From an uncultured Chlamydiae bacterium (GTDB lineage: Bacteria > Chlamydiota > Chlamydiia > Chlamydiales > SM23-39): a stretch of 64,000 bases of DNA. The stretch spans positions 548,035 through 612,034 of the forward strand of contig CAVQKJ010000004.1 of the NCBI GenBank assembly GCA_963713105.1, written 5' to 3'. Below the pieces are notes generated by a model. It did no database searches and was not told where the DNA came from. It saw only the letters and a program-made list of their open reading frames with translations. Shown here one piece after another: positions 17,589 to 17,749 of the stretch (position 1 is its first letter; each line of letters opens with the position of its first letter). The translations under genes were made by a program, and so were the position numbers.

Positions 17589-17749
17589 TATTACTCCGCT
17601 AGGCAAACAAGCGACATATAGCTTGCTGCGGCTTTGCCATATTAATCCTCCTCCTCGGTCTAGCCTTTGGCTATGCCTCTCGTCGTTCGGATCAATCTGG
17701 CTTTGCCTCGCTGGCGCTCTCTGTCGCTTGTTTGCCTAGCGGAGTAATA
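17589..17749. mobile_element. 161-bp MITE-like element, copy 1, with 28-bp perfect terminal inverted repeats
   Basis: TIRs are tattactccgctaggcaaacaagcgaca ... tgtcgcttgtttgcctagcggagtaata. The internal sequence is the reverse complement (1 mismatch) of the copy at 56787..56947. No ORF of transposase size. Confidence 0.75.

Follow-up and report, generated by a model that had tools for sequence, protein, structure and literature searches.

The window, a 64,000-nucleotide stretch of a contig from an uncultured Chlamydiae bacterium, contains two copies of a short intergenic repeat, copy 1 at 17589-17749 on the plus strand and copy 2 at 56787-56947 on the minus strand, each 161 bp long and identical to the other at 160 of 161 positions. 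The sole mismatch is found at unit base 56, which is A in copy 1 (17644) and G in copy 2 (C at 56892 on the plus strand). Both ends of each copy consist of a perfect 28-bp inverted repeat (TATTACTCCGCTAGGCAAACAAGCGACA), and TA is present at either edge of copy 1 and copy 2. A search of the window for the 26-mer TTACTCCGCTAGGCAAACAAGCGACA with up to three mismatches returned four occurrences, against 0.00 expected from 100 shuffles. Apart from a weak likeness of ~23 nt on one side, the flanks of the two copies are unrelated. Copy 1 ends 60 bp before the ATG (17810) of an acetamidase/formamidase gene, and copy 2 lies between genes encoding an outer-membrane protein (57237-58295, minus strand) and a Na/Ala symporter (55345-56688, minus strand); both point toward the start of the downstream gene, at distances of 60 and about 100 bp. 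These data agree with the first-pass annotation, made from the letters of the window alone, which had described two intergenic reverse complements with one internal difference and perfect 28-bp inverted ends, the first about 60 bp before the formamidase start.

The same annotation had set the element at 161 bp and counted two copies. The repeat unit is indeed 161 bp long, but the element proper measures 157 bp and the outermost TAs belong to the target duplication described below; likewise, two full copies are present, with an additional solo arm close to the end of the window (Table 1). The 157-bp element has no coding capacity, its frames being only stop-interrupted or spurious. The whole unit is a quasi-palindrome, and the predicted folds of its two strands reach -82 and -91 kcal/mol (z = -11 and -15). 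Neither a core nor a partner arm was found for the solo arm, which we regard as the relic of an IS or MITE copy; because it is of a different subfamily, the lineage has hosted more than one.

Table 1. Coordinates of the repeat elements and their parts in the 64-kb window
Feature	Position	Strand	Remark
MITE copy 1, element proper, 157 bp	17591..17747	+	Oriented by core motif GCTTGCTGCGGCTTTGCCA on the plus strand; boundaries via the copy 2 TA duplication
Left TA of copy 1 target-site duplication	17589..17590	.	Inferred by analogy with copy 2
Right TA of copy 1 target-site duplication	17748..17749	.	Inferred by analogy with copy 2
Copy 1 left terminal inverted repeat, 26 bp (28 bp with TA)	17591..17616	+	
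Copy 1 right terminal inverted repeat	17722..17747	-	
Copy 1 non-coding quasi-palindromic core	17617..17721	+	Family-conserved GCTTGCTGCGGCTTTGCCA (left) and TCTGGCTTTGCCTCGCT (right)
MITE copy 2, element proper, 157 bp	56789..56945	-	Boundaries from empty sites in L068, L158, L089 and L109
TA of copy 2 target-site duplication	56787..56788	.	Single TA in uninterrupted homologues
TA of copy 2 target-site duplication, other side	56946..56947	.	Single TA in uninterrupted homologues
Outer palindromic element, left part	56714..56786	.	Inverted-repeat pair and L068 match
Outer palindromic element, right part	56948..57036	.	Inverted-repeat pair and homologues
Solo 28-nt terminal arm TACTAACCCGGCATTCAAACAAGTGACA, other subfamily	61233..61260	+	Resembles the left ends of IS copies L190 and L191

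The window appears to be chlamydial. An exact look-up of the acetamidase/formamidase protein gave no record. The protein has hundreds of homologues with 75-89% identity, the named ones of which come from Rhabdochlamydiaceae, Parachlamydiales and Chlamydiota MAGs. The closest relative found was contig L068 (GCA_964538735.1), which is partly syntenic with the window and encodes a formamidase with 89% identity. No element precedes the formamidase gene in L068 or L069, and the intergenic region of the window without copy 1 is colinear with that of L068, demonstrating by comparison of the two contigs that the presence of copy 1 is lineage-specific. The 50-bp stretch leading up to the formamidase ATG (CTTGCATTTCCC...TTACAGAAAGAAAAAAGGGAC) starts 12 bp past the element end and is conserved in L068. 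No sigma-70-like promoter was predicted inside either copy. The suggestion that copy 1 supplies promoter sequence to the formamidase gene is thus unsupported, since the promoter-like stretch lies downstream of the element and is kept in the element-less relative. Nevertheless, insertion just upstream of this stretch may affect formamidase, and the two insertions, each lying a short way before a gene (formamidase or symporter), could alter the expression of these genes.

Several other features of the window were recorded. Relative to L068, an extra block (13045-17312) is present between the lumazine-binding-protein and formamidase genes, consisting of a 428-aa gene and a split autotransporter-like gene (14599-16512 and 16641-17312), with copy 1 at the block edge. 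A TPP riboswitch (RF00059, 74 bits) was identified at 51317-51412 on the plus strand, upstream of ORF 51361-52113. A 1207-aa ORF on the minus strand (45562-49185) contains extended stretches of GGN/GCN-type repeats, which a repeat scan listed as the CCTCCTCC/CCGCCGCC families, and appears to encode a glycine-rich repetitive protein.

Copy 2 is nested within a second inverted-repeat element (56714-57036), whose arms (56714-56746 and 57004-57036) enclose it. After removal of the 161 bp, this outer element shares 92% identity across 158 nt with the uninterrupted sequence L068:8376-8533, and further homologues were found at L158:1568-1689, L089:7136-7257, L109:9012-9134 and L086:~600-735. It is a palindrome of ~160 bp with the ends TATACCGCGCCCG...CGGGCGCGGTATA, and its conservation in other contigs (81-96%) exceeds that of the neighbouring genes (<80%). 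The same-strain Logan contig L001, 100% identical to the window over 6.3 kb, stops at 56748, the end of the outer left arm, a hint that the outer element, too, occurs in several copies; this element probably represents a second MITE-like family. A similar end (TATACCGGGAGTG...) occurs in L010 and L063, fused to halves of the main family.

Two other kinds of small repeat were noticed. A third palindromic element of 166 bp (ATGAACCTATCCAAATAAAGC...) is located at 27723-27888 of the window, with 39-nt arms that are 79% complementary. Its 19-nt arm tip also occurs at 62787-62805 of the window, at two places in L065 and in L044, and its CAAATAAAG motif is reminiscent of the main-family arm; it may represent another small repeat family. 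Additionally, elements of 230-330 bp in L002 (363-591), L008 (2675-2960), L030, L045, L009 and L059 contain an extra module of ~85 bp (...CCCTTCGGGGCCGATTCGCTTCGCTCATCTGCTCCGCGAGAAAAAGGTCGCCCCGGACCTTTTTCTCG...) inside the core, which has the look of a further small element inserted into the MITE.

Because TA reads identically on both strands, it might just as well form the terminus of the repeat, and the flanks alone cannot define a duplication; site L015, for instance, is compatible with both readings. No direct repeat longer than TA was found in any flank pair. At copy 2, however, the homologues of the outer element provide the uninterrupted site. In L068 (95.9% identity over 122 nt) it reads ...CTCGATCTTGC-TA-ACATACTGAAG..., with a single TA, and L158 and L089 (84%) and L109 (81%) also hold one TA at this point, in the context GTTAAC. 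The occupied site in the window reads ...CTTGC-TA[TTACTCC...GGAGTAA]TA-ACATAC..., with 157 bp between the TAs. The net gain is therefore 159 bp, namely the 157-bp element and one extra TA. As judged from these occupied and uninterrupted sites, the comparison demonstrates that the target TA was duplicated on insertion of copy 2. The first-pass annotation had read the TA flanks as a Tc1/mariner/IS630-type target duplication and called for empty sites in relatives, and the four contigs supply them. At copy 1, the unoccupied orthologous region in L068 is only loosely alignable.

Of 93 pooled ends of the family, 63% have T at position -1 and 35% have G at -2; the preferred insertion context across the family is roughly (G)T-TA-A(C). 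A piggyBac-like TTAA duplication was ruled out, as the TACTAAC...GTTAGTA subfamily alters these bases as an inverted, not a direct, repeat. Unexpectedly, two elements of one subfamily, L009 and L028 (MAG CAVSSM01), both end in ...GGGTTAGTC (GTTAGTC) rather than ...GTA, with different DNA beyond, which is discordant with the last TA always being target-derived.

Searches of species-representative genomes and JGI metagenomes with the exact 20-nt core of the window TIR gave no match, and no cognate IS with ends identical to those of the window element was thus recovered. The 161-mer had no match among plasmids (blastn), nor did the core 19-mer among viral contigs. A six-frame peptide query of the element returned a single match, protein P0001 on metagenome scaffold L002, the DNA of which contains two related elements with subterminal blocks as in the window and different arms. 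In species-representative genomes, the shared 19-mer GCTTGCTGCGGCTTTGCCA matched at 65 loci, of which 51, in 22 assemblies, bear an element, and the other 14 were discarded as chance matches in unrelated DNA. According to their title labels, 12 of the 22 assemblies belong to Chlamydiota or a subgroup, three to Verrucomicrobiae and one to Acidobacteriota, and six are unclassified. Complete elements extracted from the genome loci (n = 37) range from 75 to 331 bp. MAG JACQAR01 alone carries at least 11 near-identical copies with differing flanks, many of them at contig ends.

A second sample was ascertained on the arms instead of the core, by a degenerate-TIR scan of metagenomes. The resulting 117 metagenome loci yielded 83 complete elements, mostly of 160-180 bp, and 60 solo arms. 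Of the 83 elements, 79 matched at least 15 of the 19 positions of the left core block and 67 matched at least 13 of the 17 positions of the right one, indicating that core conservation is not an artefact of the search that produced the first sample. The family layout begins with (TA)TTAACCCG and a block of 5 nt that varies, followed by CAAATAGGTGACA, a short run of bases and GCTTGCTGCGGCTTTGCCATATCGATCC; a central hairpin, also variable, then leads to GATCTGGCTTTGCCTCGCTAGCGC and to the arm complementary to the first. The two window repeats belong to a large family in environmental chlamydiae. The copies beyond two for which the first-pass annotation had proposed a search thus number 51 genome loci and 83 metagenome elements, and the mobility that it had suggested is borne out by the numerous copies found in unrelated surroundings across many genomes and by the formamidase relative without an upstream element.

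In several contigs, arms or MITEs of the same subfamily are paired at distances of 1.6-2.4 kb (L073:1258-3655, L185:5569-7638 and L150:374-1968). The L073 pair flanks a 256-aa ORF (2179-2949) and a 168-aa ORF (2964-3470) in a composite-transposon-like layout; it was rejected as an IS because it consists of separate MITEs on either side of host genes. In L004, a 13-nt match resembling the arm falls inside an OMP gene and was dismissed as due to chance. Gene callers make spurious or N-terminally extended proteins from the elements (P0001; L004:7444-7668; L073:1890-2201 and 2179-2949), with element-derived peptides such as ...SLLRLCHI..., ...IWQSRSK... and MAKPQQAICH.... Likewise, a TTG-started ORF of the window (17732-19012) extends the formamidase into the element.

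A partner insertion sequence was found outside the window. Within the 64 kb, tblastn with the L181 transposase detected no transposase gene; a search of the first 67 loci for ends paired at spacings of 0.5-4 kb gave no full-length IS, and an all-vs-all megablast gave no multicopy segments. No match was obtained by tblastn with approximate IS630-/IS427-like pseudo-consensus queries, a weak test that was superseded by the arm-ascertained loci. Starting from these, an IS of 1122-1125 bp with the family ends was identified at eight loci, representing about five distinct elements: L181, L104, L100, L188/L189, L190 (GCA_975652005.1) and L191/L192 (GCA_027366035.1). L181, L104 and L100, from the arm-ascertained set, are short contigs in which cognate arms stand 1122-1123 bp apart around one 345-aa ORF. 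The encoded protein matches Pfam DDE_3 (E = 3e-37 to 3e-40), HTH_33, HTH_28 and HTH_23, and passes the NCBIfam equivalog NF033545, "IS630 family transposase", with 201 bits against a cut-off of 100. In an alignment of five sequences, invariant D177, D255 and D291/E292 are the candidate catalytic residues. Protein searches retrieved 345-aa relatives that form a tight clade (66-100% identity); most of them lie on contigs of ~1.1-1.2 kb, as expected of a repeated IS. The L191 flanks resemble MITE-bearing chlamydial loci, a weak hint that the IS-bearing contigs have a chlamydial host.

Like the MITEs, the IS copies have a TA at each flank. Compared with the window TIR (TATTACTCCGCTAGGCAAACAAGCGACA), the right end of L181 (TATTACTCCGCTAGGCAAACAGGTGACT) is identical throughout the terminal 21 bases and at 25 of 28 overall. 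The transposase stop codon overlaps the right end of the IS. The right ends of L181, L190 and L191 read TATTACTCCGCTAG(G/T)CAAACAGGTGAC, and the unusual ACTCC variant found at IS right ends is present on both arms of the window element. No similarity was found between the core of the window element and the IS interior, only the arms being common to both, so the element is not a simple internal-deletion derivative. From its transposase type and TA insertion, the partner is assigned to the IS630/Tc1-mariner group, in accordance with the IS630/Tc1-type partner with matching TIRs that had been predicted. The window repeat is short and non-coding, carries terminal inverted repeats, duplicates its target according to filled and empty sites, occurs in dispersed copies and shares its ends with an IS; it is a MITE. 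Overall, we assign a probability of about 90% to the reading that the repeats are a 157-bp, TA-duplicating IS630-family MITE moved in trans by the transposase of the 1.12-kb IS.

The very stable predicted fold could instead mean that the element is primarily a structured RNA, either a small RNA or a cis-regulatory leader, with selection acting on its long hairpin and dispersal only secondary. The orientation of both window copies toward a downstream gene start and the family-wide conservation of the core blocks, including a T-T-T opposite T-T-T mismatch, are consistent with this, as is strong covariation in the terminal helix: in an alignment of 20 diverse members, 118 double-change cells were counted against 36 ± 4 in shuffles, and 95% of cells were paired, compared with 35-42% in shifted registers. 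However, arm pairing is strictly Watson-Crick. G:U pairs are not enriched (12 G:U cells versus 46 non-pairs), their share being about that expected of neutral single changes, which points to complementarity at the DNA level. Moreover, neither copy has an Rfam match at gathering thresholds, with noise only at E<=10, and 37 elements show no orientation preference relative to neighbouring genes, the facing gene ends being 3' in 31 cases and 5' in 31. The ends are already accounted for by TA duplication and the cognate IS. The conserved structured RNA that the first-pass annotation had set against its own proposal therefore left no sign in Rfam, orientation or covariation, and we consider it very improbable.

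A quasi-palindrome of this kind might also be mobilised as a hairpin, by a REPIN/RAYT-like or IS200/IS605-like Y1 transposase or by an integrase acting on attC-like folded sites. The entire unit is quasi-palindromic, the 5-nt arm block varies between subfamilies and remains complementary within each element, and the ends contain TAAC...GTTA, which we take to be reminiscent of attC R boxes. To our knowledge, however, neither Y1 transposases nor integron integrases produce the TA duplication seen on insertion here. In addition, the ends match an IS630-family IS with a DDE transposase, the elements are dispersed singly without cassette arrays, and the IS arms tolerate differences in the 5-nt block, so that arm homogenisation needs no special enzyme. 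Such mobilisation is very improbable. A third alternative, in which a palindrome unable to move was copied by gene conversion or a local inverted duplication and not by transposition, would fit just two full copies in the window, inverted, nearly identical and 39 kb apart with a weak 23-nt flank resemblance, but it is scarcely credible given that the remaining flanks are unrelated, precise empty sites exist, more than 120 related copies occupy unrelated sites in many genomes and one relative lacks copy 1.

Under the IS630-family MITE reading, we infer that the element is mobilised by the 345-aa transposase, a copy of which presumably exists or existed in the source genome. The DDE transposase of the 1.12-kb IS (HTH domains plus DDE_3) would bind the 26-28-bp arms and cut out or copy the short element, which would then integrate at a TA and duplicate it. 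The core of ~100 bp is not IS-derived, the arms alone being shared with the IS, and both window arms are of the IS right-end type. Within an IS copy, the two arms agree at only 21-26 of 28 positions, with several mismatches in the 5-nt variable block, which shows what the transposase tolerates. The two arms of a MITE match better, with a median agreement of 27/28 and 26 of 121 perfect. Template switching and hairpin-templated repair are known mutational behaviours of quasi-palindromes, and by either route a short quasi-palindrome could homogenise its own arms at the DNA level. Such homogenisation is the likely cause of the better match of MITE arms compared with IS arms, and it fits the window element, in which both arms are of the right-end type.

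The core blocks GCTTGCTGCGGCTTTGCCA and TCTGGCTTTGCCTCGCT are kept in elements of many chlamydial lineages, and the T-T-T/T-T-T mismatch persists in most copies. Conservation of a core that is unrelated to the IS is the one feature that might hide something more. The core could be a binding site for a host factor or a transposase accessory that makes the MITE unusually successful, or a regulatory or terminator hairpin that spread to many genes; we nevertheless think it rather unlikely that the ~100-bp core is a functional module needed by the host or by the element itself.

Comparable elements have been described in other phyla. RUP of Streptococcus pneumoniae is linked to IS630-Spn1, and Nezha of cyanobacteria to ISNpu3-like IS630 elements. 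As with these, the elements described here are ~100-200 bp long, non-coding, dispersed in intergenic regions and apparently moved in trans, with TIRs matching an IS630-family IS and TA duplication. Unlike RUP and Nezha, they have a different sequence and a host in the phylum Chlamydiota; their core bears no relation to the partner IS yet is conserved in many genomes, and their arms are longer (26-28 bp) and usually near-perfect. The 1.12-kb partners resemble other IS630-family IS (NF033545; DDE_3) in their HTH plus DDE_3 architecture, inverted ends and TA flanks, whereas the window element lacks a transposase and has the 28-bp arms alone in common with them.

Correia elements (CREE/NEMIS) of Neisseria are 100-160 bp long, with inverted ends of about 26 bp that begin with TA, and promoter, IHF-site and RNase III functions have been documented for them. 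The chlamydial family shares the inverted TA-starting ends, a TA duplication that is separable from the repeat by empty-site comparison only, the hairpin potential of the whole element and the many copies near gene starts and ends. In contrast, there is no sequence similarity, and the chlamydial family has a cognate IS, whereas we know of no cognate transposase for Correia elements. REPINs, which are doublets of REP sequences of about 100 bp without TA duplication or a DDE partner, are likewise short hairpin-forming repeats whose arms are kept complementary by paired changes. The TA duplication and the DDE type of the cognate enzyme rule out a REPIN or an IS200-IS605-derived element.

Classical chlamydiae are almost without repeats, and environmental chlamydiae contain insertion sequences. 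No description of a MITE family of Chlamydiota or of these sequence motifs was found in the searchable literature, and none is in Rfam. The window element, which had been called novel, is undescribed to that extent, but it is one member of a large family and a well-documented new case of an ordinary kind of element, the IS630-family MITE. With its target TA, its partner transposase and more than 100 copies, the family marks break points of short-read chlamydial MAG assemblies, and its insertion polymorphisms are usable for strain typing. It also flags spurious ORF calls, since element-derived peptides are present in protein databases (for example, P0001). As a natural IS630-type system, it might be adapted for genetics in these hard-to-manipulate organisms.
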